IMG/VR virus record: IMGVR_UViG_2778261168_000006
Direction: 5' to 3' (one strand)
DNA from: a virus
Taxonomy: Duplodnaviria > Heunggongvirae > Uroviricota > Caudoviricetes
DNA length: 15,276 nt
Shown: piece by piece, positions 1,369-13,887 of the stretch
Layout of the letters: each line of letters starts with the position of its first letter
Position numbering within the stretch: the stretch's first letter is position 1
Translations under genes and position numbers: made by a program
The notes under the pieces: model-generated
What the model was told of the DNA's origin: nothing
Databases searched by the model: none
The model's input: the letters and a program-made list of their open reading frames with translations, nothing else

Positions 1369-1444
1369 GCCGATATAGCTCAGTTGGTAGAGCAGCGCAT
1401 TCGTAATGCGAAGGTCGTAGGTTCGACTCCTATTATCGGCACCA
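1369..1444 (+). tRNA. thrW: tRNA-Thr, anticodon CGU, with encoded CCA
   Basis: 76-nt cloverleaf by hand: acceptor GCCGATA/TATCGGC, D-stem GCTC/GAGC, anticodon loop UUCGUAA (anticodon CGT at 1402-1404), T-stem GTAGG/CCTAT, discriminator A plus CCA at 1441-1444. Confidence 0.92.
1428..1444 (+). repeat. attL core: 17-bp direct repeat TCCTATTATCGGCACCA within the tRNA 3' end
   Basis: Identical 17-mer recurs at 12399-12415; flanking bases differ on both sides. Covers T-loop end, T-stem 3' strand, acceptor 3' strand and CCA, the classic P4-type integration target. Confidence 0.8.
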
Positions 1445-1558
1445 CCCCCTAGTTTTTTCAAGTCAACTCACATCAACAAAATCCTTTAAAAACATATATG
1501 TTATGTTCTTTTTAGTCATTTGAGGTCAACCCTTGTCTCTTGAAATCAACTCGCAATT

Positions 1559-1607
1559 GGGGGCACAATCAGGGGCATGTTCTGTTCGGTCCAGGAAATG
1601 TGCCCCC
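1559..1607 (+). promoter_or_regulatory. 9-bp inverted repeat GGGGGCACA / TGTGCCCCC bracketing the int ribosome-binding site
   Basis: Arms at 1559-1567 and 1599-1607, 31-nt spacer containing AGGA (1593-1596); right arm ends 1 nt before the int ATG at 1609. Could be a protein-binding site or an RBS-sequestering RNA hairpin. Confidence 0.3.
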
Positions 1608-1608
1608 A

Positions 1609-2799
1609 ATGATGCTGAATGCCCGCAAGGTTGAAGCTGCGAAAGGAAAAGAGAAGAGCTACAAGCTGTCTGATGGAGGTGGACTTTACCTTCAGGTTGA
1701 ACCTAATGGCTCGCGTTACTGGCGTATGAAGTACCGTTTTGCTGGTAAAGAGAAGCGCTTGTCCTTTGGTGTTTATCCAACAGTCACACTTGCTGATGCC
1801 AGACAAAAACGAGAAGACGCAAAGAAACTTCTCGCAGTAGGTGAAGATCCTGGCGAAGTGAAAAAAGCAAAAAAGCAGGCTTTAAACGCAGCGATTGAGA
1901 CACTTAACCCATTCAGAGACGTGGCGTTAGAGTGGCACAAAATGAAATCTCCCAAATGGTCTGAGGGCTATGCTTCAGATATCATTGAAGCATTTGAGAA
2001 AGACATTTTCCCGCATATTGGACATAGACCTATAGCTGATATTCAGCCCCTTGAACTGCTTGAAGTTCTGAGGTTGATAGAAGCACGAGGCGCTATGGAG
2101 AAAGCGAAGAAAGTCCGTCAGCGATGCGGTGAAGTTTTCCGCTATGCCATCGTAACGGGTAGAGCAATCTACAATCCGGCACCGGATCTTGCCAGCGCGA
2201 TGCAAGGACATGAAGCAGTCCACTATCCATTCCTCAAAGCCAACGAGCTGCCGGAGTTCTTTACTGCCCTTAACGCTTATTCAGGAAGTCCAATTGTATT
2301 GTTGGGGGCACAATTGCTTATCCTGACAGGCCTAAGAACTGGAGAACTAAGGGCAGGTGAGTGGCGTGAGGTGGACTTTAATAATGCGGTGTGGGAGATT
2401 CCAAAGGAACGTATGAAAATGCGTAGGAGCCATATTGTCCCGTTGCCAAAACAAGCATTATCCCATCTCAAAAGTTTGAAAAACCTAACTGGGAACTACC
2501 CGCTGATGTTCCCTGGACGCAACGATCCTAGCAAACCTATGAGTGAAGCAAGCATTAATCAGGTTTTTAAACGTATTGGATATGCAGGGCGTGTTACGGG
2601 ACATGGTTTCAGGCATACGATGAGTACGATTCTACATGAGAAAGGATTTAACAGCGCTTGGATTGAAACCCAGCTTGCTCATTTGGACAAAAATTCTATT
2701 CGTGGAATTTATAACCATGCCCAATATCTCGAAGGGCGAAGAGAAATGATGCAATGGTATGCTAATTATTTATCTGAGCTAGTTGGTACTCATAAATGA
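1609..2799 (+). CDS. P4-family tyrosine integrase (site-specific recombinase with N-terminal arm-binding domain)
   Basis: Translation MMLNARKVEAAKGKEKSYKLSDGGGLYLQVEPNGSRYWRMKYRF... matches the conserved N-terminus of P4-type integrases; C-terminal region has the expected R...HxxR...Y layout (GHGFRHT, IRGIYNH). Start moved from the track's 1540 to the ATG at 1609 on the basis of the family N-terminus and AGGA at 1593-1596. Confidence 0.85.
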   Translation: MMLNARKVEAAKGKEKSYKLSDGGGLYLQVEPNGSRYWRMKYRFAGKEKRLSFGVYPTVTLADARQKREDAKKLLAVGEDPGEVKKAKKQALNAAIETLNPFRDVALEWHKMKSPKWSEGYASDIIEAFEKDIFPHIGHRPIADIQPLELLEVLRLIEARGAMEKAKKVRQRCGEVFRYAIVTGRAIYNPAPDLASAMQGHEAVHYPFLKANELPEFFTALNAYSGSPIVLLGAQLLILTGLRTGELRAGEWREVDFNNAVWEIPKERMKMRRSHIVPLPKQALSHLKSLKNLTGNYPLMFPGRNDPSKPMSEASINQVFKRIGYAGRVTGHGFRHTMSTILHEKGFNSAWIETQLAHLDKNSIRGIYNHAQYLEGRREMMQWYANYLSELVGTHK

Positions 2800-3620
2800 A
2801 TGTTTTAAAAATTAATAATACTGATTCTCTGCTCAGAGATTACTACCAATTAGATGAGGCTTCAGAAAAAATTGGTTGTAATGAAAAGGATATACTTTGG
2901 TTTGCTAGAGAACGGGATGTAGAGTTATGCATGGAATTTCATGATGATGAGTATGATGTTTCATGTGGTTTGAAGATCGATGGTCAAATGGATGAGTTCT
3001 TATCCAATCTGAAATCTTTACCGCGAGACAGAAATGGCAATATTATGTTGTCAGATTTAAGCTCTATAAGAATTCCTGATGAAAATAATTTAATTGATAA
3101 AAATGGCTTTATTCGGTGCTTCATATCCGGTTTATGGGCTGTTGATTATGAATATAAAGATCTGTTAGTTAAACATGAAGGACAACCGGATTCCTGGCCT
3201 CAGCATTTTTTAGTAGCAGGTACGCCTAATGTAAATTATAAGGCAACGCTTTATGTTAATTATGATGAAAAAGAAAATTATTATCTTTTTGAGGTTTTGT
3301 GGATTACAAAAGTACAAATTCAAAAATTCATTGACTTAGTATCATGTGAGCAAAAGCGGATAAAAAACACCAACAAATATAAATCACAATCTGAAGCGCA
3401 AAAACAAAAGCATGCAGTTCCTCGGGCTGAAATACTCATGGCTGTTATTTCACTCTATCATCGTGATATGAGGTTAAGAAGAGAGAGCCCAGCAGCGATA
3501 GCTGATTATCTTTTTCAACACGCCAGTGAGTTCTGGCCTAAGGCCGGAGAGCCGCCTTTGAGCTATGATACTGTTGTTAGTTTGCTTCGTAGCTGTATGA
3601 AAAATACAAAATTTAACTGA
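2796..3620 (+). CDS. hypothetical protein, 274 aa, AT-rich, overlapping the int stop (ATGA); unknown function
   Basis: Long ORF in markedly AT-rich DNA relative to int and backbone; start codon overlaps int stop (ATG 2796-2798 / TGA 2797-2799); followed by a hairpin plus T-run. No motif recognised by eye. Confidence 0.6.
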   Translation: MNVLKINNTDSLLRDYYQLDEASEKIGCNEKDILWFARERDVELCMEFHDDEYDVSCGLKIDGQMDEFLSNLKSLPRDRNGNIMLSDLSSIRIPDENNLIDKNGFIRCFISGLWAVDYEYKDLLVKHEGQPDSWPQHFLVAGTPNVNYKATLYVNYDEKENYYLFEVLWITKVQIQKFIDLVSCEQKRIKNTNKYKSQSEAQKQKHAVPRAEILMAVISLYHRDMRLRRESPAAIADYLFQHASEFWPKAGEPPLSYDTVVSLLRSCMKNTKFN

Positions 3621-3635
3621 ATGTTAACAATTGTT

Positions 3636-3676
3636 GTGACTAATGATTTTGGGTTTTTCTCATTAGTCACATTTTT
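3636..3676 (+). terminator. rho-independent terminator candidate after the int-adjacent gene
   Basis: 11-bp perfect stem GTGACTAATGA (3636-3646) / TCATTAGTCAC (3660-3670), 13-nt loop, followed by ATTTTTCTCATTT. Confidence 0.45.
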
Positions 3677-3745
3677 CTCATTTATAACTTGTGTTTTAAT
3701 TTTCCGTGTTGAAGCCAATAGACTTAGATAAACGGAGAATGATGA

Positions 3746-4045
3746 ATGTTATCCAAGCATGACAATACTACTTTGCAACGCCCTTCAATGGATTCTCTGG
3801 TCGATATGAAGTTTATTACATCAGATTGCTTACTAAGTGATAAATGGATTTATAGGTTGATTTCTTTAAATCGTTTCCCTAAACCTATAAAAATAGGACG
3901 GATGTCGCGTTGGCGGGCAGCAGATTATTATATGTGGAGAGATGGGTTCGAAGAAAACTCTGGACAGAAATTTGAAGGGATGAGAGAAAAGGCAAGAAAC
4001 ATTAAAAGTGGGAATACCTTAGCGTCTACTCCCACAATTCAATAG
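3746..4045 (+). CDS. alpA: AlpA-family phage transcriptional regulator (excisionase-like HTH), 99 aa
   Basis: Core KFITSDCLLSDKWIYRLISLNRFPKPIKIGRMSRWRAADYYMW resembles AlpA/prophage CP4-57 regulatory protein; GGAG at 3734-3737 precedes the ATG; sits after int as in CP4-type islands. Start could be an internal Met. Confidence 0.65.
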   Translation: MLSKHDNTTLQRPSMDSLVDMKFITSDCLLSDKWIYRLISLNRFPKPIKIGRMSRWRAADYYMWRDGFEENSGQKFEGMREKARNIKSGNTLASTPTIQ

Positions 4046-4072
4046 AGTTCAATATTATTAATAACTAATGGC

Positions 4073-4246
4073 TTAGCCTTTAGGCTCTATTCCTCGTAAT
4101 TGAAGCTCTTTACGTAAAATTCTCTTGATCCAAGATGCCAATGCGTTATCTCCATCTTTGCGCATTTCATTTTCAAGCTGCAACCTGAAATCTTCGTTAA
4201 GACGCATTTGGAATGGAGGAGAGCGTTTTTCTTGTGGTGTTGACAT
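4073..4246 (-). CDS. small ribbon-helix-helix (Arc/CopG-like) DNA-binding protein, ~57 aa; candidate island repressor
   Basis: C-terminal 57 aa of the track ORF (MSTPQEKRSPPFQMRLNEDFRLQLENEMRK...) has the beta-strand-then-helix pattern of Arc-type RHH proteins. Upstream Met codons of the track ORF lie inside the operator palindromes and lack an RBS, so the short start is preferred but uncertain. Confidence 0.5.
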   Translation of the reverse strand: MSTPQEKRSPPFQMRLNEDFRLQLENEMRKDGDNALASWIKRILRKELQLRGIEPKG

Positions 4247-4288
4247 GGTAATTACCCTAACATATGATGCGTACATGGTAATTACCAT
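4243..4288. promoter_or_regulatory. paired palindromic operator sites (ACATGGTAATTACC x2) in the divergent control region
   Basis: 14-bp direct repeat at 4243-4256 and 4273-4286, each containing the 10-bp palindrome GGTAATTACC; the second extends to the perfect 14-bp palindrome ATGGTAATTACCAT (4275-4288). Centres are 30 bp apart; they overlap the start of the minus-strand RHH gene and lie upstream of the plus-strand early operon. Confidence 0.5.
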
Positions 4289-4376
4289 TGTAGAGCTAGA
4301 GAGCCTATAAAAGCAATGCCCGAGAGTGCTGGAACACCGCTCGAGCATTTAACCACCGTTAAAAGAGGTAACGAAG

Positions 4377-4553
4377 ATGGCTAAACAGAAGTGTACCTGG
4401 TTATTTGCGGCGATCAACCGCAGTCAGCGCAATGCCCGTCCTGTGATGTTAAGGATCAATGCAGATAACGAGCGGTCAGCGCGGCGCAGACTTGCCCCGG
4501 ACTATGTGCTGAGCTTTGCCAGTCGCATTCCTTGCGGAGGTGAAAATGCGTAA
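4377..4553 (+). CDS. small ORF (58 aa) missing from the ORF track; possibly Icd/Ash-like small phage protein
   Basis: ATG at 4377 preceded by AGAGG (4363-4367); translation MAKQKCTWLFAAINRSQRNARPVMLRINADNERSARRRLAPDYVLSFASRIPCGGENA; stop overlaps the next start (ATGcgTAA at 4546-4553). Family assignment is from memory and tentative. Confidence 0.45.
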   Translation: MAKQKCTWLFAAINRSQRNARPVMLRINADNERSARRRLAPDYVLSFASRIPCGGENA

Positions 4554-4905
4554 TTATCCGCAACCCGGCGAACGCTGGCAGCATGTACGTGGCTGGACCG
4601 TAACAATCATCCGATTAACTGAAGCCCCGCCCTCCGTGGCGCTGCTTAATCCTGAATTCAGCCGTGAAGTGCTGATACGTCATGACAGCGACAACCAGCT
4701 TTCTTCCTGCCCTCTGGCATGGTTTAAACAGCGGTATACGCGCCTGTTTGATGCGCCGCTCTTTAAATCTTCGCCAGCTCCGGCGGGCGGTAGTGGTTCC
4801 GGCCCGCTGACACTGCATCCGTCTGTGGTATTTACCCGCTGGCGGGAGCGCAGCATACGACGTTCTGCTGAACCTGACGACAGTCACTATTCCAGGTTTC
4901 TCTGA
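4546..4905 (+). CDS. hypothetical protein, ~119 aa, early operon
   Basis: ATG at 4546 preceded by GGAGGTG (4537-4543), a better start than the track's 4516; translation MRNYPQPGERWQHVRGWTVTIIRL...; contains a Gly/Ser/Pro-rich linker (SSPAPAGGSGSGP). Confidence 0.55.
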   Translation: MRNYPQPGERWQHVRGWTVTIIRLTEAPPSVALLNPEFSREVLIRHDSDNQLSSCPLAWFKQRYTRLFDAPLFKSSPAPAGGSGSGPLTLHPSVVFTRWRERSIRRSAEPDDSHYSRFL

Positions 4906-4936
4906 CAAAACACCGCTGAAAACGGAGTAATCCACG

Positions 4937-5221
4937 ATGAATATTTCAAACGGGCACAACGGTGCTCAGGGCCACTCCTTGCCTGAAAAACACTATACCG
5001 GTGCTTTTGCCTATGGGTTGTCAGAGGACGGTTTCGGAAAGCTGGCCAGAGCCAGAAAGGCCTGCGACATGCTGCAGCTTCTCTTTTCTGAATACCCGTC
5101 TCAGGGCGGAACGCTGGATGCAGGCTGTGCGCCAGGCATTGCCGCGCTGATGGAGTACCTGCGGGCAGATTTGACGGATATTGCGCACAGCTGCGCACTG
5201 ATTGAAGGAGGTGCTGAATGA
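4937..5221 (+). CDS. hypothetical protein, 94 aa, early operon
   Basis: ATG at 4937 with GGAG at 4924-4927; stop overlaps next start (ATGA at 5218-5221). Confidence 0.5.
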   Translation: MNISNGHNGAQGHSLPEKHYTGAFAYGLSEDGFGKLARARKACDMLQLLFSEYPSQGGTLDAGCAPGIAALMEYLRADLTDIAHSCALIEGGAE

Positions 5222-5601
5222 ACCAGCCGCAGGTTTCCATTTTCCCGGCAGAAATGACCACCGCACTGTACCGGCGGGCGATTGCATCGGCATGGCGGCA
5301 GAAAATGCTGACCGAAACCGGCAGTAATCGGTGTGGTCCGCACAGCCTGACGGTTGAGCGTATTGAAATGGCCATTGCCCTGCATATTGAGTGCGCACTG
5401 ATTAACGAGTACGGCGAAGAACAGGGCGCCGCTGTCGCGCTGGCACTGCTGACTGACATGCTGGAGCCGTCACTGCTGACTGCGCCGCCGGTACTGACCG
5501 TGCGCGGCTGTGAAGTGATGGCGGAGCTGTACCGCACGCTTCCGGCGGCCTTTGATGATTTCTGCAGCACGGGTGTGGCGCTGTATCAGGGGGAAGTATG
5601 A
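5218..5601 (+). CDS. hypothetical protein, 127 aa, early operon
   Basis: ATG at 5218 preceded by AAGGAGGTG; stop overlaps primase start (ATGA at 5598-5601). Confidence 0.5.
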   Translation: MNQPQVSIFPAEMTTALYRRAIASAWRQKMLTETGSNRCGPHSLTVERIEMAIALHIECALINEYGEEQGAAVALALLTDMLEPSLLTAPPVLTVRGCEVMAELYRTLPAAFDDFCSTGVALYQGEV

Positions 5602-8270
5602 CAACACAGACGGTTACGCAGATTTCAGCCGCCGCGCGGGGGAAATGGCCCGTTATTCTGCAGATGCTGCGTATTGATGTACCTGAAAACGGCAGGCACG
5701 GTCCCTGCCCGAAATGTGGGGGCAAGGATCGTTTTCGCCTCGATGACCTTGACGGGCGCGGGACGTGGATTTGCAGCCAGTGCGGCAATGGTGACGGTCT
5801 GGATCTGGTTAAGCTCATGACCGGTTACGGCGTCAGAAAGGCCGCGCAGGAGGTGGCGCAGGTGCTTAATGTGCCGGATATGCAGAAACTGCCCGTTAAG
5901 CCTGCCAGGCAAAAAGCCCCTAAACGCGACATGAGCCTTACCGTGGCGGCGCTGATGAAAGAGAGCCACACGGGAGAAAGCCCCTATCTGGCCGGGAAAG
6001 GGTTTGCCGGATACCCGGCCTCCCTGACCGGGAGCGTGCAGCATATCAGCGGTAAGGATTTCCCTGCCGGTTCCCTGCTGTTACCGCTCACGACCAACGC
6101 CGGAGCCGTGACCGGTGCGCAGCTTATCGCCCCGACGGGTGAAAAAAGCTTACTGCCCGGCAGCACGATGAAAGGTGCGTTTGTGGCGCTCAGCCCGTTA
6201 CCGCCTGAACCACCGGTACAGGTGGTGATTACCGAAGGCTATGCCACGGCGCTGACGGTAAGCCAGCTCACCGCCGGATGCGTAGTGGCGGCCATATCGG
6301 CGGTCAACCTGCCCAACGTTGCGCAGTCGCTGCGGGCACGCTGGCCGGAGGTAAAAATTATTATCGCCGGTGATAACGATTTTCAGGACGGGGGCGAAAA
6401 CCCGGGCAGAGCCTTTGCTGAACGGGCGGCAAAAGCCGTCGGCGGCTGGATGACGCTGCCACCGGGAGAGATGAAGGCCGACTGGAATGATTTCCATCGA
6501 GAGCACGGTATTACCCGCGCCCGTGATGCCTTTCGTAACGGTCTGGTGCTGTGCGGAGAAGGCCGCACGCAGCTGCCGCACGGGTTCCGTCTTACCCATG
6601 AATATCTGTGGTATGAAAAACAGGTACAGCGCAACGGTGAGACGGAGATCCAGAACGTCAAAATATGCAACCCGCTGCGCGTGACGGCAATCACCTGCGA
6701 TGCCGATGGCGGTAATTTCGGGCGACTGCTGGAGTGGGAAGATACATGGGGAGAGCGCCGCCGCTGGGCGATGCCGATGGAAATGCTCAGTGGTAGCGGT
6801 GAGGAACTACGCCGGGTACTGCTGGTTAACGGGCTGTCCTATATCAGCACCACCGGTGAGGCCCGTGCCCGCCTGATGGAATATATCTCGCTGTGTAAAC
6901 CGGAACGCCGCGTGACCTGCGTCAGCCGCACTGGCTGGCATGGTCAGGTTTACGTCCTGCAGGATGAGGTCAGCGGTGAAGGTGCAGAGGGTGTCATTCT
7001 CCAGACCACTTCCGTGCAGGGGCGCGATTTCCGTGTGTCAGGTACAACGGAGGAATGGCGGGAGCACGTTTCCCGTTACTGCACCGGTAACTCCCGCGTG
7101 GCGTTTGCCGTCAGTCTGGCCTTTGCTGCACCCCTGTTACGGCTGGTTGGGATGGACGGCGGCGGCTACCACCTCAAGGGGGAATCGACTGACGGTAAGA
7201 CCACCACCATGAAAGCGGCAACCTCCGTTTGTGGCGGGCCTGATTACTGGCAAACGTGGCGGGCAACCGGCAACGCGCTGGAGGGATGCGCCAGCCGCCG
7301 CAACGATGCCGCCATGATGCTTGATGAGATCCGGGAGGTGGACGGACGCGAGGCGGGTAATATCGCCTACATGCTGGCAAACGGTCAGGGCAAGGGCCGT
7401 GCCGGTACGGACGGTGAGCTGCGCACCCGTAAGCAGTGGCGGCTGCTGTTCTTTTCAACCGGCGAGCTGTCACTGACCGAACATGCGGCAAAAGCCGGTG
7501 AGCGTACCTTTGCCGGGATGGAAGTCAGGATGATCCAGATCCCCAGCGATTCCGGGAAATTTGGCGTATTTGAGGAGCTGCACGGCTTCGACAGCGGCAA
7601 GGCTCTGGCGGAACATCTGGAGTGGGCCACGTCCAGCTACTACGGTTCGCCGTTCAGGGAGTGGCTGAAAGCCCTGACCGCTGACCTTAACGGGCTGACG
7701 GCACAGGCAAAGTCACTGATGAAGGAATATACAGCCGCCCTGACCCCGAAAGATGCGGGTAATCAGGTAGGCCGGGCTGTGAACCGTTTTGCACTGGTGG
7801 CGATGGCGGGCGAGCTGGCAACCCGGCTGGGGATTACTGGCTGGCCTGAGGGGGAAGCGCTGCGGGCAACCCGCGTGTGCCTGAACGCCTGGCTGAAAGA
7901 TCGCGGGCACACCGCCAATCAGGAAGATATTGCCGCGCTGGAGCAGGTACGCAGTTTCTTTACCGCGAATCAGTACAGCCGCTTTGCAGACTGGCACGAC
8001 GAGCGCAACCGCCCCGGCAATATGGTGGGCTGGCGCAGGGTGGAGAAAGGCAGTACCGCGCAGGGCACGGAAGCCGTCACCACGTTCTACGTTATGCCGT
8101 CCGGCTGGAAAGAAATCTGCCGGGGATTTGACCCGCGCAAGGTGGCACGTCTGTGCGCGGATCGTGGATACCTGCAGCCTTCTGCCGACGGAAAGCTGCA
8201 GACAACCATTCGCCCGCCAGAGATGAATCCCCGCAGGCTCTACGTCTTCAACAGCGAGGTGCCGGGTTAA
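5598..8270 (+). CDS. P4 alpha-like replication protein: zinc-ribbon primase N-terminus, Toprim region, P-loop helicase C-terminus (890 aa)
   Basis: N-terminal CPKCGGKDRFRLDDLDGRGTWICSQCGNGDGLDLV is a primase-type CxxC...CxxC zinc ribbon; acidic Toprim-like motifs (VVITEGYATA, IIIAGDNDFQDGGENPG); Walker A-like GESTDGKTT in the C-terminal half. GGGGGA RBS before the ATG at 5598. Confidence 0.85.
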   Translation: MTTQTVTQISAAARGKWPVILQMLRIDVPENGRHGPCPKCGGKDRFRLDDLDGRGTWICSQCGNGDGLDLVKLMTGYGVRKAAQEVAQVLNVPDMQKLPVKPARQKAPKRDMSLTVAALMKESHTGESPYLAGKGFAGYPASLTGSVQHISGKDFPAGSLLLPLTTNAGAVTGAQLIAPTGEKSLLPGSTMKGAFVALSPLPPEPPVQVVITEGYATALTVSQLTAGCVVAAISAVNLPNVAQSLRARWPEVKIIIAGDNDFQDGGENPGRAFAERAAKAVGGWMTLPPGEMKADWNDFHREHGITRARDAFRNGLVLCGEGRTQLPHGFRLTHEYLWYEKQVQRNGETEIQNVKICNPLRVTAITCDADGGNFGRLLEWEDTWGERRRWAMPMEMLSGSGEELRRVLLVNGLSYISTTGEARARLMEYISLCKPERRVTCVSRTGWHGQVYVLQDEVSGEGAEGVILQTTSVQGRDFRVSGTTEEWREHVSRYCTGNSRVAFAVSLAFAAPLLRLVGMDGGGYHLKGESTDGKTTTMKAATSVCGGPDYWQTWRATGNALEGCASRRNDAAMMLDEIREVDGREAGNIAYMLANGQGKGRAGTDGELRTRKQWRLLFFSTGELSLTEHAAKAGERTFAGMEVRMIQIPSDSGKFGVFEELHGFDSGKALAEHLEWATSSYYGSPFREWLKALTADLNGLTAQAKSLMKEYTAALTPKDAGNQVGRAVNRFALVAMAGELATRLGITGWPEGEALRATRVCLNAWLKDRGHTANQEDIAALEQVRSFFTANQYSRFADWHDERNRPGNMVGWRRVEKGSTAQGTEAVTTFYVMPSGWKEICRGFDPRKVARLCADRGYLQPSADGKLQTTIRPPEMNPRRLYVFNSEVPG

Positions 8271-8304
8271 GGCTGTGCGTGAGTCTTATTTATTAAGGGT
8301 AACA

Positions 8305-8493
8305 GGTGAAACAGGTGGAACAACCGTGTTTTACAAGGGCTGAAACTGTTCCACCTTCTGAAATAGTGAGGTGGAACAGGTGAAACGCCAGCCGATCCGC
8401 TGTTCCACCTTGTTACCCGCGATGTTTCACCTGTGCTGTGCATATAAATGCTTTGCAAAACAATGCGGTAACACATGTTCCACCTGTTCCACC
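8305..8493. repeat. iteron cluster (ori/crr-like): nine copies of GGTGRAACA / TGTTYCACC in both orientations
   Basis: Copies at 8305-8313, 8314-8322, 8370-8378, 8379-8387 (top, last one ends G) and 8347-8355, 8401-8409, 8423-8431, 8476-8484, 8485-8493 (bottom), in an intergenic stretch directly after the primase-helicase gene. The 9-mer resembles the P4 alpha-binding iteron TGTTCACC recalled from the literature. Confidence 0.6.
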
Positions 8494-8581
8494 GCATCAG
8501 GGACATAAAGCAGGCTGAAACAGAGGGCATTTTTATCTGGCTGGCTTTCATAGCCACGTCTGAATAACCGCAGACGCCCGT

Positions 8582-8650
8582 TGTGCCAGCCACCACACAC
8601 CGAGCGCCGGTAGTGCGCTTGTGTCAGCCACGACACAATTGTCGTAACGA
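8582..8650 (+). promoter_or_regulatory. candidate Ogr/Delta-activated late promoter for the sid-psu-delta operon
   Basis: TGT-N12-ACA dyad at 8582-8599 (TGTgccagccaccacACA), the spacing reported for P2/P4 late-promoter activator sites, about 55 bp upstream of a plausible start near 8645; AGGAG RBS at 8662-8666 before the ATG at 8672. A similar half-repeat TGTGTCAGCCACGACACA follows at 8621-8638. Confidence 0.4.
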
Positions 8651-8671
8651 ACCAACCCGACAGGAGAAGTC

Positions 8672-9415
8672 ATGAACAACACCGCAGAGAATAACGACCT
8701 TTCCACTTTTCCGGCTGTAACGCAGCGGGCACTGGAAACCCTTAATGTCGCCCGAAATGAGTGGCTTGAAGTTCGACGCCAGCAAAAAGCGGCAGCGGAT
8801 AATATTGCGACAATCCGCCAGCGCCGCGCTGAAATGGAAGCCACGACTAACGCGCTGAATGAGGAGTGGCGCACGCTGTTTCGTGAAAGTCAGGGCGTAG
8901 TCTCAAAGGAAATGAAAAAACTGCGCACGGAAATTGCGCTGGGACGAGAAACGCTTGAGGATTTTGATGAACTGCTGGCAGCTCAGGAAAGCGAAGATGC
9001 ATTTTTACCGCAGAAGGCTGCGCAACTGGCCGGACAGTATATCCACGCTCACGAAAACCTTCTGAGTATTCGCGCAAAACAAATCTGGGAAGATTTTATG
9101 CAGGCGCATGGTAAGGCTCTAATCCAGACGCTGAGCCTGCTCAAATCCACAATGGGACGGGAAGCCAGTGCTGTTACCGGAGTGGTGCATTCTGTAAACG
9201 ATCCGGACACACTGCTGAAAGACTTTATCCGCAAACATATCACCGAACCGGCACTCGCTAACGACGCGATGCCGGAACAGGACCCGGTGTTCAGACTGGC
9301 GGGCGTTGCACCGGATTATGCGGCCCGTCTGGATTTCAGTAAACAGCCCTCTCCTGCAGCTATTCATAAAATGAAGGTTCGTCAGGAACGTGCCGGGAAG
9401 GAGAAATCAGTATGA
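8672..9415 (+). CDS. sid: Sid-like external scaffold (capsid size determination) protein, 247 aa
   Basis: First gene of the late operon; size close to P4 Sid as I recall it; Ala/Glu/Arg/Gln-rich helical sequence; shares the motif DFMQAHGKAL with the downstream Psu-like protein (NFMQANGAAL). Assignment rests on context and paralogy, not a search. Confidence 0.55.
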   Translation: MNNTAENNDLSTFPAVTQRALETLNVARNEWLEVRRQQKAAADNIATIRQRRAEMEATTNALNEEWRTLFRESQGVVSKEMKKLRTEIALGRETLEDFDELLAAQESEDAFLPQKAAQLAGQYIHAHENLLSIRAKQIWEDFMQAHGKALIQTLSLLKSTMGREASAVTGVVHSVNDPDTLLKDFIRKHITEPALANDAMPEQDPVFRLAGVAPDYAARLDFSKQPSPAAIHKMKVRQERAGKEKSV

Positions 9416-9963
9416 CGGCCCGGGCCACTCCTGCGCAGGCACTTACCAGTTTTCGAAATGCCCGTATTCTGTGGGCCGGACATAGTGAGAGCCGAAAAGC
9501 TGCTGAACAACAGATAGAATCTCTCCTCACTGCCACGGAAAAACCAGCAGATTATGCCCGACAGCTCGGGTTACTGCGGGAACGCCTGGATGTGCTGAAA
9601 TGGCAGATTAACTGCGCTGCGCGTGAGTGTATGTACTCGCAGCATCTGCTGATGGAGGCCTGCACAGAAGACGCTCTCAGCAATTTTATGCAGGCGAATG
9701 GAGCAGCCCTGACATCTGCACTGGCTCCGTTTCTTAAGGGGCGTGGAGGGGTTGACGTTGCGTCCCGTATGTTACGCAGTGCCCTGGTTCGACAGCTGGC
9801 AATAACACCGCCTGAAATCGCCGGGGATTATCGTGAGATTCTGGATGAATCCGGTGTGAGGCCTGACCCCAAGATGGTTCGTGACTGCCAGGGTACTTAC
9901 ACTCCGGCACAACATCTGCGCTTTCAGCAACGCCTGAATGACATTAACGATATGCAGGAGTGA
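9412..9963 (+). CDS. psu: Psu-like protein (polarity suppression / capsid decoration), 183 aa
   Basis: Start overlaps the sid-like stop (ATGA); motifs KWQINCAAREC, FMQANGAALTSALAP and TPAQHLRFQQR resemble P4 Psu as recalled; size close to P4 Psu. Confidence 0.6.
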   Translation: MTARATPAQALTSFRNARILWAGHSESRKAAEQQIESLLTATEKPADYARQLGLLRERLDVLKWQINCAARECMYSQHLLMEACTEDALSNFMQANGAALTSALAPFLKGRGGVDVASRMLRSALVRQLAITPPEIAGDYREILDESGVRPDPKMVRDCQGTYTPAQHLRFQQRLNDINDMQE

Positions 9964-9968
9964 TATTG

Positions 9969-10241
9969 ATGGCACTTAAATGTCCTGAATGCGGTACGAC
10001 GGCACACGCCAGAACCTCCGCCTATGAAGCTCCATCGGTTAAACGCTCATGGTATCAGTGCCAGAACCTGGAATGTTCCTGCACATTTACCGCACTCGAA
10101 AGTGTGGATACGATAATTATGAAGCCCCGGCGCAATGTAAATGTACCAGTCGAACCGGAGCAACCTGAAAAGCAGCAGAGAACGCTCAATCGCTATGGCT
10201 CCGCGTCAAAGCTGTCAGGCCGTCAGCAAATCCCGGTCTGA
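9969..10241 (+). CDS. Ogr/Delta-family zinc-finger late-gene transcriptional activator, 90 aa
   Basis: MALKCPECGTTAHARTSAY...RSWYQCQNLECSCTF..ESV matches the P2 Ogr signature (CPxC...AHARTS...YxQCQNxxCSxTF). ATG at 9969 with AGGAG at 9956-9960 preferred over the track's GTG at 9960. Single-finger size, unlike the duplicated P4 Delta. Confidence 0.8.
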   Translation: MALKCPECGTTAHARTSAYEAPSVKRSWYQCQNLECSCTFTALESVDTIIMKPRRNVNVPVEPEQPEKQQRTLNRYGSASKLSGRQQIPV

Positions 10242-10262
10242 TTAGCAAAAAACGCCCACGTA

Positions 10263-10289
10263 ATCCCGGTCCTGTACCGGGATTTTTTA
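10263..10289 (+). terminator. rho-independent terminator of the late operon
   Basis: Perfect 8-bp stem ATCCCGGT / ACCGGGAT with 5-nt loop, followed by TTTTTT (10284-10289), 22 nt after the delta-like stop. Confidence 0.7.
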
Positions 10290-10332
10290 CGCCTTTTCCC
10301 TGGCTGGCCTGAGAGCGCGTGAGTGCATGTCT

Positions 10333-10371
10333 ATGGCGCATGAAAACGCATGAGTATCATGCGCCATTTTT
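10333..10371 (+). other. second structured element: 11-bp inverted repeat plus T-run
   Basis: ATGGCGCATGA (10333-10343) / TCATGCGCCAT (10357-10367) with 13-nt spacer, followed by TTTT. Could be a tandem terminator or a protein-binding palindrome. Confidence 0.3.
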
Positions 10372-10440
10372 GACGCGAAAGCCCTTGTGCGGCAGCTTCT
10401 GAGACGATTTACGGGGTGCATGAAAACCAGTCTGTTAAGC

Positions 10441-10470
10441 GAAGCGGGCAGGCGGGCGGGGCTGTGCGAT
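10441..10470. other. GC-rich tract, candidate cos (packaging) site
   Basis: GGCAGGCGGGCGGGGCTGTGCG lies immediately after the late operon, where P4 has cos, and partly resembles the P2/P4 cohesive-end sequence as I recall it (GGCGAGGCGGGGAAAGCAC). Match is imperfect; hypothesis only. Confidence 0.3.
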
Positions 10471-10670
10471 GTTTGTATGCGACTCGTTTATTTTTCTTGG
10501 CTTTGTGTGCGGTAAGAGAGCCTATCAAGCTGGGCTTGGCGAAAGGAAGCGTATTTTCTATTGAGAAGCCTATAATTGCTCTGAGGCCTCGAGTATGCTT
10601 CAAACGCAGCTTACAAGGTTGATTATGTCACTTCGCTTTTTTTTGTCTTCTTCTGGGATGCTGGGAAAAA

Positions 10671-10699
10671 CTTCAAATCTGGCTAAAATTGAAGTAATA
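10671..10699 (+). promoter_or_regulatory. candidate sigma70 promoter for the cargo operon
   Basis: TTCAAA (10671-10676), 17-bp spacer, TAATAT (10694-10699) in an AT-rich leader about 90 bp upstream of the cargo start. No TGT-N12-ACA dyad was found here, so this operon is probably not Delta-dependent. Confidence 0.3.
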
Positions 10700-10786
10700 T
10701 CAGGCAGTCATACTGAATAATAATGTTACTAATTTTTCATTGAAACTATTAGCTTAGTGGTTTTCACACAGTAGAAAGGATTTAAG

Positions 10787-11710
10787 ATGAAAGTCAGACG
10801 AATTGGAATTTCTTTAACTAATAAAAATAAAACAATTCGCTTTTCCGATTTTATAAATTACTTAATCCCATTCAATGGGGAAAGAATGGGGTTTGATGGA
10901 GGGGAGCGCTTTTTCCTTTTCCACGAAGATGATGTGTTTTTTTCAGGTGTCGTTTTATCCTTTAAGGATCAGCGAAGAGATTGTAGGGCAAGATTTCAGG
11001 ATGGACAATTTACTATCCATACAGCTGATATTCTTGATGATGAAAAGTTGATTGATTTTAATTTTTTTGTTGTTAAGAAAAGCTCTTTGAAAGGCCTTTA
11101 CGAGTACTATCATAACTCTTGCAGTATACATGTTTTGTTTGCTTTGTTACGTAATAAATTCAATGCGTTGAAAGCGGAAAAAATTTCTAATTATATTGCT
11201 GATAATTTGGCTTTGGGGCGTGAAAAGGCTGAGGCTAAGGGTAAAAAGGAGTATGCAGGAAGACTCTCTACTTCTATCTTAATTGATAATAGAGATATAC
11301 CTACAGTCCTAGCTGAATACGCTAAGGTTAAGAAAATAGAAATGTTGTTTGATGCTCAGCAATTTGCTGTTGGGCATGCAGTTGCACTACAAAGGAGTTC
11401 GCGCGAGGTTAAAGTATCTTTTAATATCACGGATTCTGAACAATCGAATATTGATAGACTAACCCAAGGCGTAGTTGAGCTTGCAGGCAATGTAGGTTTC
11501 AAAAAAGGTAGTGTCAGTACTGTAGATAGTCATGATATAGAGCGAACTATTTCTATCTTAAATTGTCCTAAGAGATTAGGTGAGTGTGAGTTCGAAGATT
11601 TAGCTCATAGGATTGATGGCTTGACAGTGGAGAATTTTCATGAAAATGAAATACTTGTCGAGCTAAAAAGGGAAATAAACGAGGGGGAGTATCGTGCACT
11701 CTTTAATTAG
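10787..11710 (+). CDS. cargo gene A: hypothetical soluble protein, 307 aa, AT-rich; candidate component of an uncharacterised anti-phage system
   Basis: ATG at 10787 preceded by AAAGGA; AT-rich ORF with no hydrophobic segments; no known catalytic motif recognised by eye (no GS...DxD nucleotidyltransferase signature, no Walker A, no HxH/PD-(D/E)xK pattern I could place). Its 3' end overlaps gene B by 17 bp. Confidence 0.65.
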   Translation: MKVRRIGISLTNKNKTIRFSDFINYLIPFNGERMGFDGGERFFLFHEDDVFFSGVVLSFKDQRRDCRARFQDGQFTIHTADILDDEKLIDFNFFVVKKSSLKGLYEYYHNSCSIHVLFALLRNKFNALKAEKISNYIADNLALGREKAEAKGKKEYAGRLSTSILIDNRDIPTVLAEYAKVKKIEMLFDAQQFAVGHAVALQRSSREVKVSFNITDSEQSNIDRLTQGVVELAGNVGFKKGSVSTVDSHDIERTISILNCPKRLGECEFEDLAHRIDGLTVENFHENEILVELKREINEGEYRALFN

Positions 11711-12287
11711 ATATATAGCTCAGTTCCCTATGGCCAGTATTTTTAAACAAATGCTGGGTATTGTTATTTTCTCGCTAATCCTAGTGTGTGGTATTGCATT
11801 TCTGTATTATAAGTATGGATTCAGCATTACCTTAGAGAAAGATACTACTTTCTTTAATTATTATGAATCAAAAATAAGAGGGTATCTTTTTTCAGGCTTC
11901 ATTTCTGTTGGCTCTTTTTTGTTGTCATTACACACTTTTGTAATAGTAAATCTTAAAGATAAACTTTTTGATTCAGAAGCATATAAAAATAATTATATAG
12001 ATTTTAAAAGTCAACAGATTAGAAATTTCACCGCTGATATGATTAAACCATATGAGTACTATGCTCCTTTGAATGTTCTATCAGTCTTCCTTAATGTTTC
12101 TATATGGTTATCGATTATTACTGCTGTTATACAGTTTACACTTGGCTTTTATGATAACTCATATACAGCTCTTTTTTGTATGTACCTGGCTCTTGTGACT
12201 GTCCTCTTCCTCTTAAATTGCCTGATACTTATACGCTGTAACATTAAAGTTTGGCTAACACTTGAGCAAAAAAATAAACCTAAATAA
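11694..12287 (+). CDS. cargo gene B: hypothetical integral membrane protein, 197 aa, four predicted transmembrane helices; candidate effector/sensor partner of gene A
   Basis: GTG at 11694 preceded by GAGGGGGA (11681-11688); alternative ATG at 11730. Four hydrophobic segments (approx aa 20-38, 63-86, 126-150, 158-181) with positively charged flanks. AT-rich like gene A. Confidence 0.65.
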   Translation: MHSLIRYIAQFPMASIFKQMLGIVIFSLILVCGIAFLYYKYGFSITLEKDTTFFNYYESKIRGYLFSGFISVGSFLLSLHTFVIVNLKDKLFDSEAYKNNYIDFKSQQIRNFTADMIKPYEYYAPLNVLSVFLNVSIWLSIITAVIQFTLGFYDNSYTALFCMYLALVTVLFLLNCLILIRCNIKVWLTLEQKNKPK

Positions 12288-12291
12288 GCAA

Positions 12292-12332
12292 TGCCCCTAC
12301 CATTAAAGCATGAACTGAGTAGGGGCACTTTT
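12292..12332 (+). terminator. terminator candidate after the cargo operon
   Basis: 9-bp stem TGCCCCTAC (12292-12300) / GTAGGGGCA (12319-12327), 18-nt loop, followed by CTTTT. Confidence 0.35.
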
Positions 12333-12398
12333 GGGGGCATAAGAAAAAATATGGCAAATAAAGTCCTTTAATTTCAATTTGTTATGCTTATATTTTGT

Positions 12399-12415
12399 TC
12401 CTATTATCGGCACCA
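12399..12415 (+). repeat. attR core: duplicate of the tRNA-Thr 3' end (TCCTATTATCGGCACCA)
   Basis: Exact 17-bp copy of 1428-1444, no tRNA body attached; marks the right boundary of the island. Confidence 0.8.
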
Positions 12416-12541
12416 TTAAAATCAAAGAGTTACCCCATATTTAAATACACCACGTTTCCTCCTGTGCCGCATTTGTGCCATTGTAACCTTGGCAATTCAT
12501 CAAAATACTGTTCTGACATCAGGCAGTGCAGGTGCAGCTAT

Positions 12542-12880
12542 TTAAACCAATTGCTGCCGCCATTCTTTGACGTAGTCAATCAGGGCGCGGAGCTTTGGTG
12601 CAATATTGCGACGCTGTGGGAAATACAGATAGAAGCCCGGAAATTGTGGAAGAAAGTCATCAAGCAGCGATACAAGCTTACCGCTTTCAATATATGGCCT
12701 GAAAGTTTCCTGAGTGGCAATTGTTATTCCTCCGCCGGCAAGAGCCAGCCTCAACATCAGACGCAGATCATTAGTCGTAATCTGCGGTTCAATCGCAAGG
12801 TCGAAAGTTCTCCCGTTTTCTTCAAATGGCCAGCGATAAGGCGCAACCTCCGGGGACTGACGCCAGCCGATACACTTATG
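12542..12880 (-). pseudogene. LysR-family regulator remnant (C-terminal part of the effector-binding domain only; no HTH)
   Basis: C-terminal ~110 aa of the minus-strand ORF (HKCIGW...DLRLMLRLALAGGGITIATQETF...LYFPQRRNIAPKLRALIDYV) look like the end of a LysR substrate-binding domain. The N-terminal part of the track ORF is an out-of-frame overlap with paoD. Resembles the LysR fragment next to paoD in E. coli K-12 (yagP, from memory). Confidence 0.5.
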
Positions 12881-12930
12881 GGTATTTCCCCCGGAGGCGA
12901 GAAAGCGCTCTCCACGCCCGGCCGCAAGGA

Positions 12931-13887
12931 TCAGGACGACGGGGGCAGGCATGAATCCTCCTCCTGATGGAGACGTACAGAGGCGACTTCTGCCAGCACG
13001 GAGAGTGCCAGAGTATGCGCATCCCGGGCTTTGGGGAATATCCCGACGGGTGCCCGGATTTGCGTTGTTTCCTCCCTGGACCATCCCAGCTCGTGGAGCT
13101 TTTGCAGACGTAACGTGTGGGTTCGATAGCTGCCCAATGCGCCGAGATAAAAGGGTTTTGCTTCTCGCGCGGCCTGCAACACTGGCAGCTCCCGGTTGAG
13201 ATCATGGCACAGCAAAATGACCGCCGTATCGGTATCGATCTGAGCGCTGGCTGAGGCCGGAAAAAGATCGAAGATATGGCTGTCATAGCCTGTGGCTGCT
13301 GCAAGACTCGCAGTTGCCTGCGCCTCAAGAGAACGTCCGTAAATCATCAGCCTGACGCATGGCCTGAACCCCACCTCAAAGCCATTGAGATTCCAGCCCG
13401 TTCGGGTTTGCGTGGGCAGGCACACCAGCGATTGTGCTTGCGGATCGTAGCGCAGCCCCGCCGGTTTTCTCTGTTCCAGACGGTTCAGCACGGCGAGCAG
13501 AGGCTGTGCCGAGCGTAGTTTATGGAGCGTCAGCGTGATCCCACCGCCGCAGGGCAGAACGATGTCAAACCACGGCGAACCTTCGCCATAGCGAATTTCG
13601 CGATCGCGGCCTGAGCCCATCATCTCCAGCGCTTCAAAAGCGGCAGCGGCCTCCACGCAGCCGCCAGAGACAAAACCGCAGTAACGACCATCTTCGCGAA
13701 CCACCATCTGCGCCCCGAGCGGGCGCGCTGCGCCGCCGCGTATCTCCACCAGCGTCACCAGCACCGCTCCTTTACCGGACATTAGCGCCTCTACGGCGAA
13801 GCGCAGAATGGTCCGGTGGTCATCGGTGAGAAACGCCTGCTCTGGCTTATGCCAGTGTTCGTCTTTATCAAAAAGCGGGTATGACAT
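12931..13887 (-). CDS. paoD: XdhC-family molybdenum cofactor insertion chaperone for periplasmic aldehyde oxidoreductase, 318 aa
   Basis: Translation MSYPLFDKDEHWHKPEQAFLTDDHRTILRFAVEALMSGKGAVLVTLVEIRGGAARPLG... reads as E. coli PaoD (YagQ); strong AAGGAG RBS on the minus strand at 13893-13898. Confidence 0.85.
   Translation of the reverse strand: MSYPLFDKDEHWHKPEQAFLTDDHRTILRFAVEALMSGKGAVLVTLVEIRGGAARPLGAQMVVREDGRYCGFVSGGCVEAAAAFEALEMMGSGRDREIRYGEGSPWFDIVLPCGGGITLTLHKLRSAQPLLAVLNRLEQRKPAGLRYDPQAQSLVCLPTQTRTGWNLNGFEVGFRPCVRLMIYGRSLEAQATASLAAATGYDSHIFDLFPASASAQIDTDTAVILLCHDLNRELPVLQAAREAKPFYLGALGSYRTHTLRLQKLHELGWSREETTQIRAPVGIFPKARDAHTLALSVLAEVASVRLHQEEDSCLPPSS

Follow-up and report, generated by a model that had tools for sequence, protein, structure and literature searches.

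A conserved gene between int and alpA in P4-like satellites: a possible factor of the integration/excision-AlpA switch

Gene X and the int-X transcription unit

The stretch of DNA analyzed here (IMG/VR virus record IMGVR_UViG_2778261168_000006; 15,276 nucleotides (nt), called the window below) carries a P4-like satellite of about 11 kb in which a gene, here named X, lies between the genes for a tyrosine integrase (int) and an AlpA-like protein (alpA). Gene X occupies positions 2796..3620 on the plus strand, begins with ATG and encodes 274 amino acids. As the original prediction had stated, its start lies in an ATGA overlap with the int stop codon (a 4-nt overlap at 2796-2799, with the int TGA at 2797-2799), and it is the most AT-rich coding stretch of the left half of the element. 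Its guanine-plus-cytosine (GC) content is the lowest there at 34.9% (28.4% at third codon positions), compared with 45.7% in int, 38.0% in alpA and 60.8% in the primase gene, and only the cargo genes at the right end of the satellite (35.9% and 30.5%) come near it. Because the pairwise ratio of nonsynonymous to synonymous substitution rates is 0.08-0.19 in all three domains of the predicted protein among close and intermediate relatives, these comparisons indicate that X is a genuine coding gene under purifying selection.

Beginning 14 nt after the X stop codon, a perfect inverted repeat (TGTGACTAATGA / TCATTAGTCACA at 3635-3646 / 3660-3671) is followed by TTTTTCTCATTT, and the whole forms a predicted intrinsic terminator at 3635..3683 on the plus strand, with a 12-bp stem, a 13-nt loop and a T-rich tail. 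The hairpin and T-run that had been described at this place are present, with a stem of 12 rather than 11 bp; a simple terminator scan with a loop limit of 3-8 nt did not list the hairpin, whose own loop is 13 nt. Its RNA fold has a predicted energy of -16.1 kcal/mol (z = -2.35), and 3 of 200 shuffled sequences were as stable. The position of the hairpin is kept in 16 loci from four lineages, in which 90.6% of the alignment cells are paired, six of ten pairs are altered on both sides and A-U to G-U changes are frequent; none of 500 shuffles reached the observed covariation score, and slid controls were 34-51% paired. The stem GTGACTAATGA/TCATTAGTCAC of the window lineage is replaced elsewhere by GGTGAGTAAG/CTTACTCGCC, GGCAGGTAAG/CTTACTTGCC and other variants, and the T-run follows the hairpin in all 16 loci. 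A palindromic protein operator was also considered and is less likely, since several lineages keep the pairing only through G-U, which favors an RNA structure over a DNA operator. The hairpin reads as a conserved intrinsic terminator that would close an int-X operon.

No clear Shine-Dalgarno (SD) sequence is found upstream of X in the window lineage (..GGTACTCATAAATG), which together with the ATGA overlap suggests that translation of X probably depends on ribosomes finishing int. Most other lineages have GGAG or GAGG 8-12 nt upstream of X, within the 3' end of int. X is thus probably translated from the int message by coupled ribosomes, and would presumably be present in the lysogen whenever Int is.

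The alpA-like gene (3746..4045, plus strand) starts about 125 nt beyond X and encodes a basic protein of 99 amino acids (pI 9.8), which falls just under the cut-off for Pfam Phage_AlpA (E = 6e-4) and matches the phrog_66 excisionase/regulator family (E = 5e-6). In its leader a stem-loop is predicted at 3700..3739 on the plus strand, formed by an anti-SD arm (UUUUCCGU, 3700-3707) and an SD arm (ACGGAGAA, 3732-3739). The two arms shift together by lineage (UCCUCUC/GAGAGGA, CCGCCGU/ACGGGGG, UCACUCCA/UGGAGUGA), and minimum-free-energy folds recover the stem in most loci; this covariation was read from the arms of each lineage, which are out of register in the locus alignment, and is not a formal count. 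The predicted stem suggests translational insulation or control of alpA and, if it is real, a message reading through from int-X would include alpA in a form shut to translation. Between the terminator and alpA, no convincing or conserved sigma-70 promoter for alpA was found. A block, TG(T/A)TT(T/A)AAT..(C/T)C(C/T)..GTTGA at 3694-3713, is common to all lineages (16 loci) whichever type of X they carry; a conserved factor might bind there, or the block might belong to an unconventional promoter of alpA.

Conservation of the slot and descent of X

X had been regarded as an orphan gene, a description that no longer holds, as a profile search found at least 150 clusters of relatives at 50% identity. 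A word-indexed search with X returned 18 clusters of 54-98% identity from Enterobacter, Citrobacter, Pantoea and Erwinia (the close clusters total 18 + 15), the nearest of which, at 98% identity, comprises 1562 sequences and takes its name from Enterobacter hormaechei. In E. coli satellites whose int is approximately 90% identical in DNA, the X slot holds a 'hypothetical protein' of 262 or 265 amino acids, and these are distant homologues of X (29% and 24% identity, E = 3e-39 and 7e-28, respectively). The profile was built from both groups and searched against 1.8 billion representative proteins, with matches taken at E up to 1e-3. Among the matches listed, the X-family clusters are mostly 230-375 amino acids long and aligned at both the N- and C-termini; all bear the name 'hypothetical protein', and no member has a Pfam domain. 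Named hosts include Yersinia, Serratia and Salmonella and, outside the Enterobacterales, Undibacterium, and a metagenome scan added further members on freshwater and sediment contigs. A tblastn search of phage and plasmid collections with X gave no match, and a limited search of the literature found no study characterizing the family. Core-gene lists of P4-like satellites do not include X (PMC8628076, PMC13586616), and it is absent from the essential trio int/alpA/pri of Gram-negative phage-inducible chromosomal islands (PICI), for which 'HTH_17' proteins have been placed beside Int and AlpA in an 'integration zone' (PMC10111431).

Synteny was compared at 50 loci with distinct X-family members, drawn from NCBI genomes, GTDB species representatives, IMG/VR, Logan/ENA/JGI contigs and E. 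coli RefSeq. By script, int lies directly upstream of X on the same strand at 35 of the 43 loci where the available upstream flank is 1.1 kb or longer, and tblastn recovered two more at which the caller of open reading frames (ORFs) had over-extended the start, giving about 37 of 43. The distance from the int stop to X is 15 nt or less at 26 of these 43 loci, and lies between -14 and +13 nt in the Enterobacterales loci that were compared; this spacing and the covarying terminator bear out the proposal that X is a discrete unit expressed with int. On the other side, where at least 400 nt of downstream sequence is available, X is followed by a match to an AlpA hidden Markov model (33 loci) or by a small same-strand ORF within 300 nt at 43 of 45 loci.

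The association extends to elements of other kinds. On low-GC environmental contigs the upstream integrase is of another subtype (Phage_integrase without Arm-DNA-bind_3), and the gene downstream of X encodes a clear HTH_17 protein at one locus and is an unannotated ORF of 73-82 amino acids elsewhere. Three distant members without an adjacent int (L027, L052 and L053) still directly precede alpA, which is followed by the gene for a DUF3987 protein in L027 and L053 and by those for an AAA_25 protein and a MobA/MobL relaxase in L052 (Undibacterium). When the search was based on AlpA instead, all 11 IMG/VR loci with a close AlpA relative proved to carry an upstream X member, two of them newly found. 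The int-X-alpA arrangement occurs in Enterobacter, Escherichia, Shigella, Citrobacter, Pantoea, Erwinia, Serratia, Yersinia, Salmonella, Brenneria and environmental lineages, at differing att sites and with differing right-end cargos. Among the 84 complete E. coli genomes with a megablast match to the window int, 66 have an A-type X and 13 a B-type homologue; one int copy without X belongs to a remnant cut by an IS5-family element right after int.

The original prediction had treated the gap between int and alpA in CP4-type islands as a second variable slot. When the interval was compared across satellites, an X homologue was found at every related locus examined, in the same slot and in many genera, so that X is kept with int across distant satellites. 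The gap is thus constant in this lineage; one observation favors the prediction, in that CP4-57 of E. coli K-12 holds the unrelated, oppositely oriented yfjH between intA and alpA and the gap is therefore not filled alike in all CP4-type islands. Because the same slot is retained in satellites with differing cargo, X belongs to the backbone rather than to the cargo, and these comparisons support the view that it is a fixed third part of an int - X - terminator - alpA module in this P4-like lineage and in related elements.

The descent of X was followed by identity comparison of 16 loci. X identity tracks that of the primase (Spearman 0.71), as expected for a vertically inherited backbone gene, and co-evolution of Int and X was ruled out (Spearman 0.07). 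The int gene has evidently been exchanged between backbones: in L008 an int identity of 94% goes with an X identity of 29%, and in L001 the two values are 64% and 59%. X diverges more quickly than the primase, with 59-61% identity at a primase identity of 91% and 26-31% at 66%. Arms-race-like divergence was considered and toned down, since other small backbone genes nearby are 56-69% identical at the distance where X is 59%, and we claim no exceptional arms race. The same slot holds at least four X groups, between which identity is only about 30%. In some copies X is inactivated, by IS1 insertions in E. coli and by apparent truncation or frameshift in L022 and L040.

These observations bear on the suggestion that X is cargo, an anti-phage defense or superinfection-exclusion gene sitting in a second variable slot. 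Defense systems are a known part of the gene content of P4-like satellites (PMC9122126, PMC13586616), X resembles the right-end cargo in its AT-richness, and its loss is not lethal to the element. However, essentially every member of the lineage has an X homologue, X follows the backbone phylogeny, and a PADLOC search with X found 0 families at E up to 1. Moreover, the published P4 hotspots are int-psu and primase-att, and int-alpA is not among them (PMC13586616). The variable hotspot of these satellites is the other end, from delta to attR, which corresponds to the published primase-to-att hotspot; there, beyond delta, the relatives carry DRT3 (E. coli C21), Kiwa (E. coli BCE049) or SMC/AAA genes (Pantoea, Erwinia), and a Pantoea agglomerans satellite (L003) that also has X carries a cII-family gene. 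With the slot constant, no PADLOC match and the variable defense cargo at the opposite end, we consider a defense role of X very unlikely. The corresponding cargo of the window satellite (10787-12287) comprises a gene for 307 amino acids (phrog_2802, 35.9% GC) and an overlapping one for 197 amino acids that has no matches (30.5% GC). PADLOC gave no match for this cargo either, and it is a better candidate than X for a new defense system.

The X protein and its possible role

The original prediction recognized no domain in X, and neither did our searches: Pfam and PADLOC returned nothing, and PHROGs and NCBIfam only sub-threshold noise. An AlphaFold2 model built on a 16-sequence alignment (mean predicted local distance difference test score, pLDDT, 79.6; predicted template modeling score 0.62) suggests three parts. 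These are an N-terminal domain of amino acids 1-75 (2796..3020, plus strand, as are the other parts), a middle alpha/beta domain of amino acids 76-190 (3021..3365; modeled for amino acids 89-192), and a basic linker (amino acids 191-207) with a C-terminal helical domain (amino acids 208-274) encoded at 3366..3617.

Within the N-terminal domain, residues 16-72 are predicted to fold as strand-helix-helix-strand-strand-helix (pLDDT approximately 90), which resembles the winged helix of excisionase/HTH_17/MerR proteins. Pfam HTH_17 (PF12728; gathering score 27 bits) gives no match on the window X, and its relatives score a sub-threshold 14-16 bits over residues 13-54 (E = 0.018-0.046). By hhalign, X residues 12-55 align in register with the HTH_17 domain of the environmental downstream gene (E = 0.014, low probability). 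Domain libraries run on 22 and 60 family members gave only sub-threshold HTH_17 and scattered noise, a PDB sequence search with profiles of 16 and 60 members gave only noise, and Foldseek of the X model against PDB and BFVD gave nothing. Antibody VH chains (E approximately 0.1) were taken as a chance motif similarity, and tRNA-guanine transglycosylase (E 0.9) as noise. The remote homology and structure search proposed with the original prediction has therefore yielded a weak HTH_17 resemblance and otherwise no relative. The N-terminal domain is probably a divergent excisionase-type winged helix, as judged from the model, and the remainder of X has no detectable relative in these searches.

In charge, this domain departs from its presumed kin. 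It has a net charge of -10 and a pI of 4.2 (family median 5.0, with 72% of the members below pI 6), compared with pI 9.0-11.4 for AlpA proteins, and D32 in the would-be recognition helix is kept in at least 90% of 60 diverse members. The basic DNA-binding surface expected of an HTH_17 protein or excisionase is not seen on it, and a protein-binding or decoy function of the winged helix is conceivable. The middle domain, acidic in 95% of members, is the least conserved and varies in length (104-195 amino acids among the members listed). The linker (amino acids 190-207) is predicted to be disordered (pLDDT below 50) and the helical C-terminal domain is modeled for amino acids 210-269; both are mildly basic. 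In a 60-member alignment, the mean pairwise identity is 34% in the C-terminal domain, 25% in the N-terminal and 14% in the middle domain. Residues R210, L214, A216, W247, P254 and L255 are conserved in at least 90% of these members, within the motif ERHA..RE.VL.AAI ... FWP..G.PPL.

X is tied to int on one side and to an AlpA-type gene on the other, and this association spans integrase subtypes, replication modules (DUF927, DUF3987, AAA_25/relaxase) and host groups, which points to the excision-induction switch rather than to helper exploitation or defense. We therefore favor, tentatively, the view that X may serve the integration/excision-AlpA switch, as an accessory or a regulator, and is not cargo, a reading of the gene order that we hold to be plausible though well short of assured. 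X would be made in step with Int, off the int message, while AlpA would be kept off in the lysogen by the terminator and possibly by a closed ribosome-binding site. X would then act with or on AlpA and/or Int. Its conserved, mildly basic C-terminal domain would probably contact a conserved partner, the N-terminal winged helix would have lost its usual basic DNA-contact character, and the acidic middle domain would diverge fast. In this way, X could restrain or otherwise tune AlpA-dependent excision and induction until a helper signal arrives; whether it is a brake or tunes the switch otherwise is a working guess, much less certain than the general class of function.

Several observations weigh against such a role. 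Disrupted copies of X persist, so that X is dispensable for mere maintenance of the element, and the lack of covariation with int argues against a tight, specific Int-X partnership. An acidic winged helix, unlike AlpA, makes classical DNA binding doubtful, and a candidate repressor of the early operon lies elsewhere (see below). Finally, guilt by association cannot separate an activator from an inhibitor.

The acidic winged helix also allows a more specific proposal, in which X would be a degenerate excisionase-fold decoy or antagonist of AlpA (an 'anti-excisionase') or of the docking site of AlpA on Int, and as such a third component of the module. Being stoichiometric with Int, X would set the threshold of the excision/induction switch, and the variable middle domain could be where helper phages or competing elements flip it. 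We regard this proposal as rather unlikely in its particulars. If it were true, the integration modules of tyrosine recombinases (int - X - RDF/AlpA, where RDF is a recombination directionality factor) would contain a third, unrecognized component in proteobacterial satellites and islands.

The same domain pattern could instead belong to a helper-sensing repressor that works in the manner of Stl of Staphylococcus aureus pathogenicity islands (SaPI), binding DNA at the alpA leader or promoter and blocking alpA until a helper protein contacts the fast-evolving middle domain and releases X, whereupon excision and replication would start. X is placed accordingly, flanked by int and, just downstream, by the induction gene alpA, and it combines a winged helix and a hypervariable middle domain with a conserved C-terminal domain. 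Several of its lineages are less than 35% identical behind nearly identical int genes, as would be expected of specificity determinants, and P4-type CI RNA (Rfam C4/IsrK) was not detected in this satellite. However, an acidic winged helix is atypical of a repressor that binds an operator, and the divergence of X, being like that of the neighboring small genes, needs no arms race. X is also co-directional with alpA, with a terminator between them, whereas the SaPI stl and str genes are divergently oriented.

A more obvious repressor is encoded by a ribbon-helix-helix gene on the minus strand (4073-4246; 57 amino acids from the ATG at 4246), which gives a weak match to the Arc-like repressor family phrog_228. 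This gene abuts the best promoter-like site of the region (TTGACA-17-TATGAT, 4240-4268), and the 14-bp sequence ACATGGTAATTACC occurs in exact copies at 4243-4256 and 4273-4286, each with the palindrome GGTAATTACC, flanking the -10 hexamer. The gene and the ACATGGTAATTACC copies probably form the repressor and operators of the early icd-to-primase operon. Together with the lack of a C4/IsrK RNA, they suggest that immunity of the early operon is protein-based and seated elsewhere than in X. This weakens the case for an Stl-like function of X, which we judge to be rather unlikely.

It could also be argued that X, as an acidic and partly fast-evolving protein of a satellite, interferes with or exploits the helper phage, acting on its repressor, capsid, terminase or late activator. 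However, the satellite's helper-directed genes sit in its late region (psu-like, psu, delta), and the ORFs just upstream of DUF5375 would, by their position, correspond to P4 epsilon/orf151. Furthermore, some X members precede alpA in elements with a MobA/MobL relaxase or a DUF3987 primase, in whose examined flanks there is no psu, delta or capsid gene; a phage-specific role is therefore unlikely to be the ancestral function, and we consider the helper-directed explanation distinctly unlikely.

How AlpA-type satellites of Gram-negative bacteria decide on excision and replication is poorly understood, and X, which nearly always sits between int and alpA in the satellites and other integrative elements sampled here from several proteobacterial groups, is a candidate for a control element that has so far been missed. 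For annotation, this means that the AT-rich 'hypothetical' neighbor of int in these islands is best left out of counts of cargo and of candidate defense genes. Should X be only a minor accessory protein, the outcome would be a new DUF-type family.

The surrounding satellite and comparison with known systems

The satellite is flanked on the left by proA (1-1254) and begins in a tRNA-Thr (CGT) gene (1369..1444, plus strand; ARAGORN and Rfam). The attL core TCCTATTATCGGCACCA is the 3' end of the tRNA (1428-1444) and has an attR copy at 12399-12415, a 17-bp direct repeat that sets the extent of the element at approximately 1428-12415. The P4-type tyrosine integrase gene (1609..2799, plus strand) matches Pfam Arm-DNA-bind_3, Phage_int_M and Phage_integrase (E = 1e-25 to 6e-35). 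Its frame is open from 1540, and the RefSeq annotation of a 96% identical E. coli copy points to 1609, which is probably the true start rather than the annotated 1540. From left to right, int and X are followed by the alpA-like gene, the small minus-strand gene, an Icd-like gene (so labeled from the RefSeq annotation of the same 96% identical E. coli copy), two small ORFs, DUF5375, a Toprim/DUF927 primase gene, two Psu-like genes, an Ogr/Delta-type regulator gene and the AT-rich two-gene cargo. The right flank holds paoD and then paoC on the minus strand. The tRNA-flanked att repeats, int, AlpA, primase, Psu and Ogr/Delta, the genes identified with Pfam and PHROGs, place the element among P4-like or Gram-negative PICI-like satellites.

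Some further features of the element were noted. The sequence TTGGGGGCACA is present in four copies, one with a mismatch, where 0.4 are expected (1557-1567, 1599-1609 on the minus strand, 2302-2312 and 12331-12341); they lie on both sides of the att core, with one inside int, and are similar to the arm-type sites for integrase that are annotated in the attP of P4. The two Psu-like genes adjoin within 8672-9963 (247 amino acids, phrog_6165; 183 amino acids, phrog_6366), upstream of the delta-like gene and co-oriented with the primase gene, and in the E. coli C21 relative the second of them is absent. Satellites of E. coli, Salmonella and Serratia (L009, 14287-15291; L024, 9469-10596; L025, 9007-10008) have a P2-family major capsid gene (Phage_cap_P2) and an extra gene for 273-290 amino acids, both between alpA and the Icd/Ash region, and the window satellite is without both. 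An ORF of 190 amino acids that crosses attR (12395-12967) corresponds to E. coli DNA annotated on the other strand as a LysR-family pseudogene remnant and is probably not part of the satellite.

The fold predicted for the N-terminal domain of X has the strand-helix-helix-strand-strand-helix topology of the excisionase/HTH_17/MerR group (TorI, phage Xis, AlpA/Vis). Its pattern ..EAA..LGC...D(I/L)L..A..G.I aligns in register with one HTH_17 domain, and X shares with excisionases a location in the integration module. It differs from them in being acidic, in the near-invariant Asp of the 'recognition' helix and in its approximately 200 further residues of no recognized fold. A direct assignment of X to AlpA/Vis (PF05930) was rejected, as hhalign against the window AlpA, P4 Vis and a 9-member AlpA alignment gave probabilities below 1%.

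Among proteins of similar placement, Stl of the SaPIs is likewise mid-sized, highly divergent and N-terminally helix-turn-helix, and lies beside int where the regulatory region of the satellite begins or ends (PMC6695447 for Stl). X is comparable in these respects; however, it has no sequence or fold match to Stl, is co-directional with alpA and terminated before it, and has an acidic N-terminal domain. In CP4-57 of E. coli K-12, YfjH fills the intA-alpA interval as X does here, but it lies on the opposite strand and has 318 amino acids, and homology with X was rejected at an hhalign probability of 0.25%.

P4 itself differs from the window satellite in its layout. Its sid-delta-psu block is divergent from the vis-alpha operon, whereas here the psu/delta block comes after the primase gene in the same orientation. 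Downstream of int, P4 has cII and then the gop/beta hotspot, where the window satellite has X and then alpA. An identity of X with cII (Phage_P4_cII, PF26915) was rejected, with no Pfam match and an hhalign probability of 0.5%. In position, however, cII, which is also similar in size (264 amino acids), is the nearest analogue of X: like X, it comes directly after int on the same strand and is followed by a terminator, beyond which lies the gop/beta hotspot in P4 and alpA in the satellite described here.

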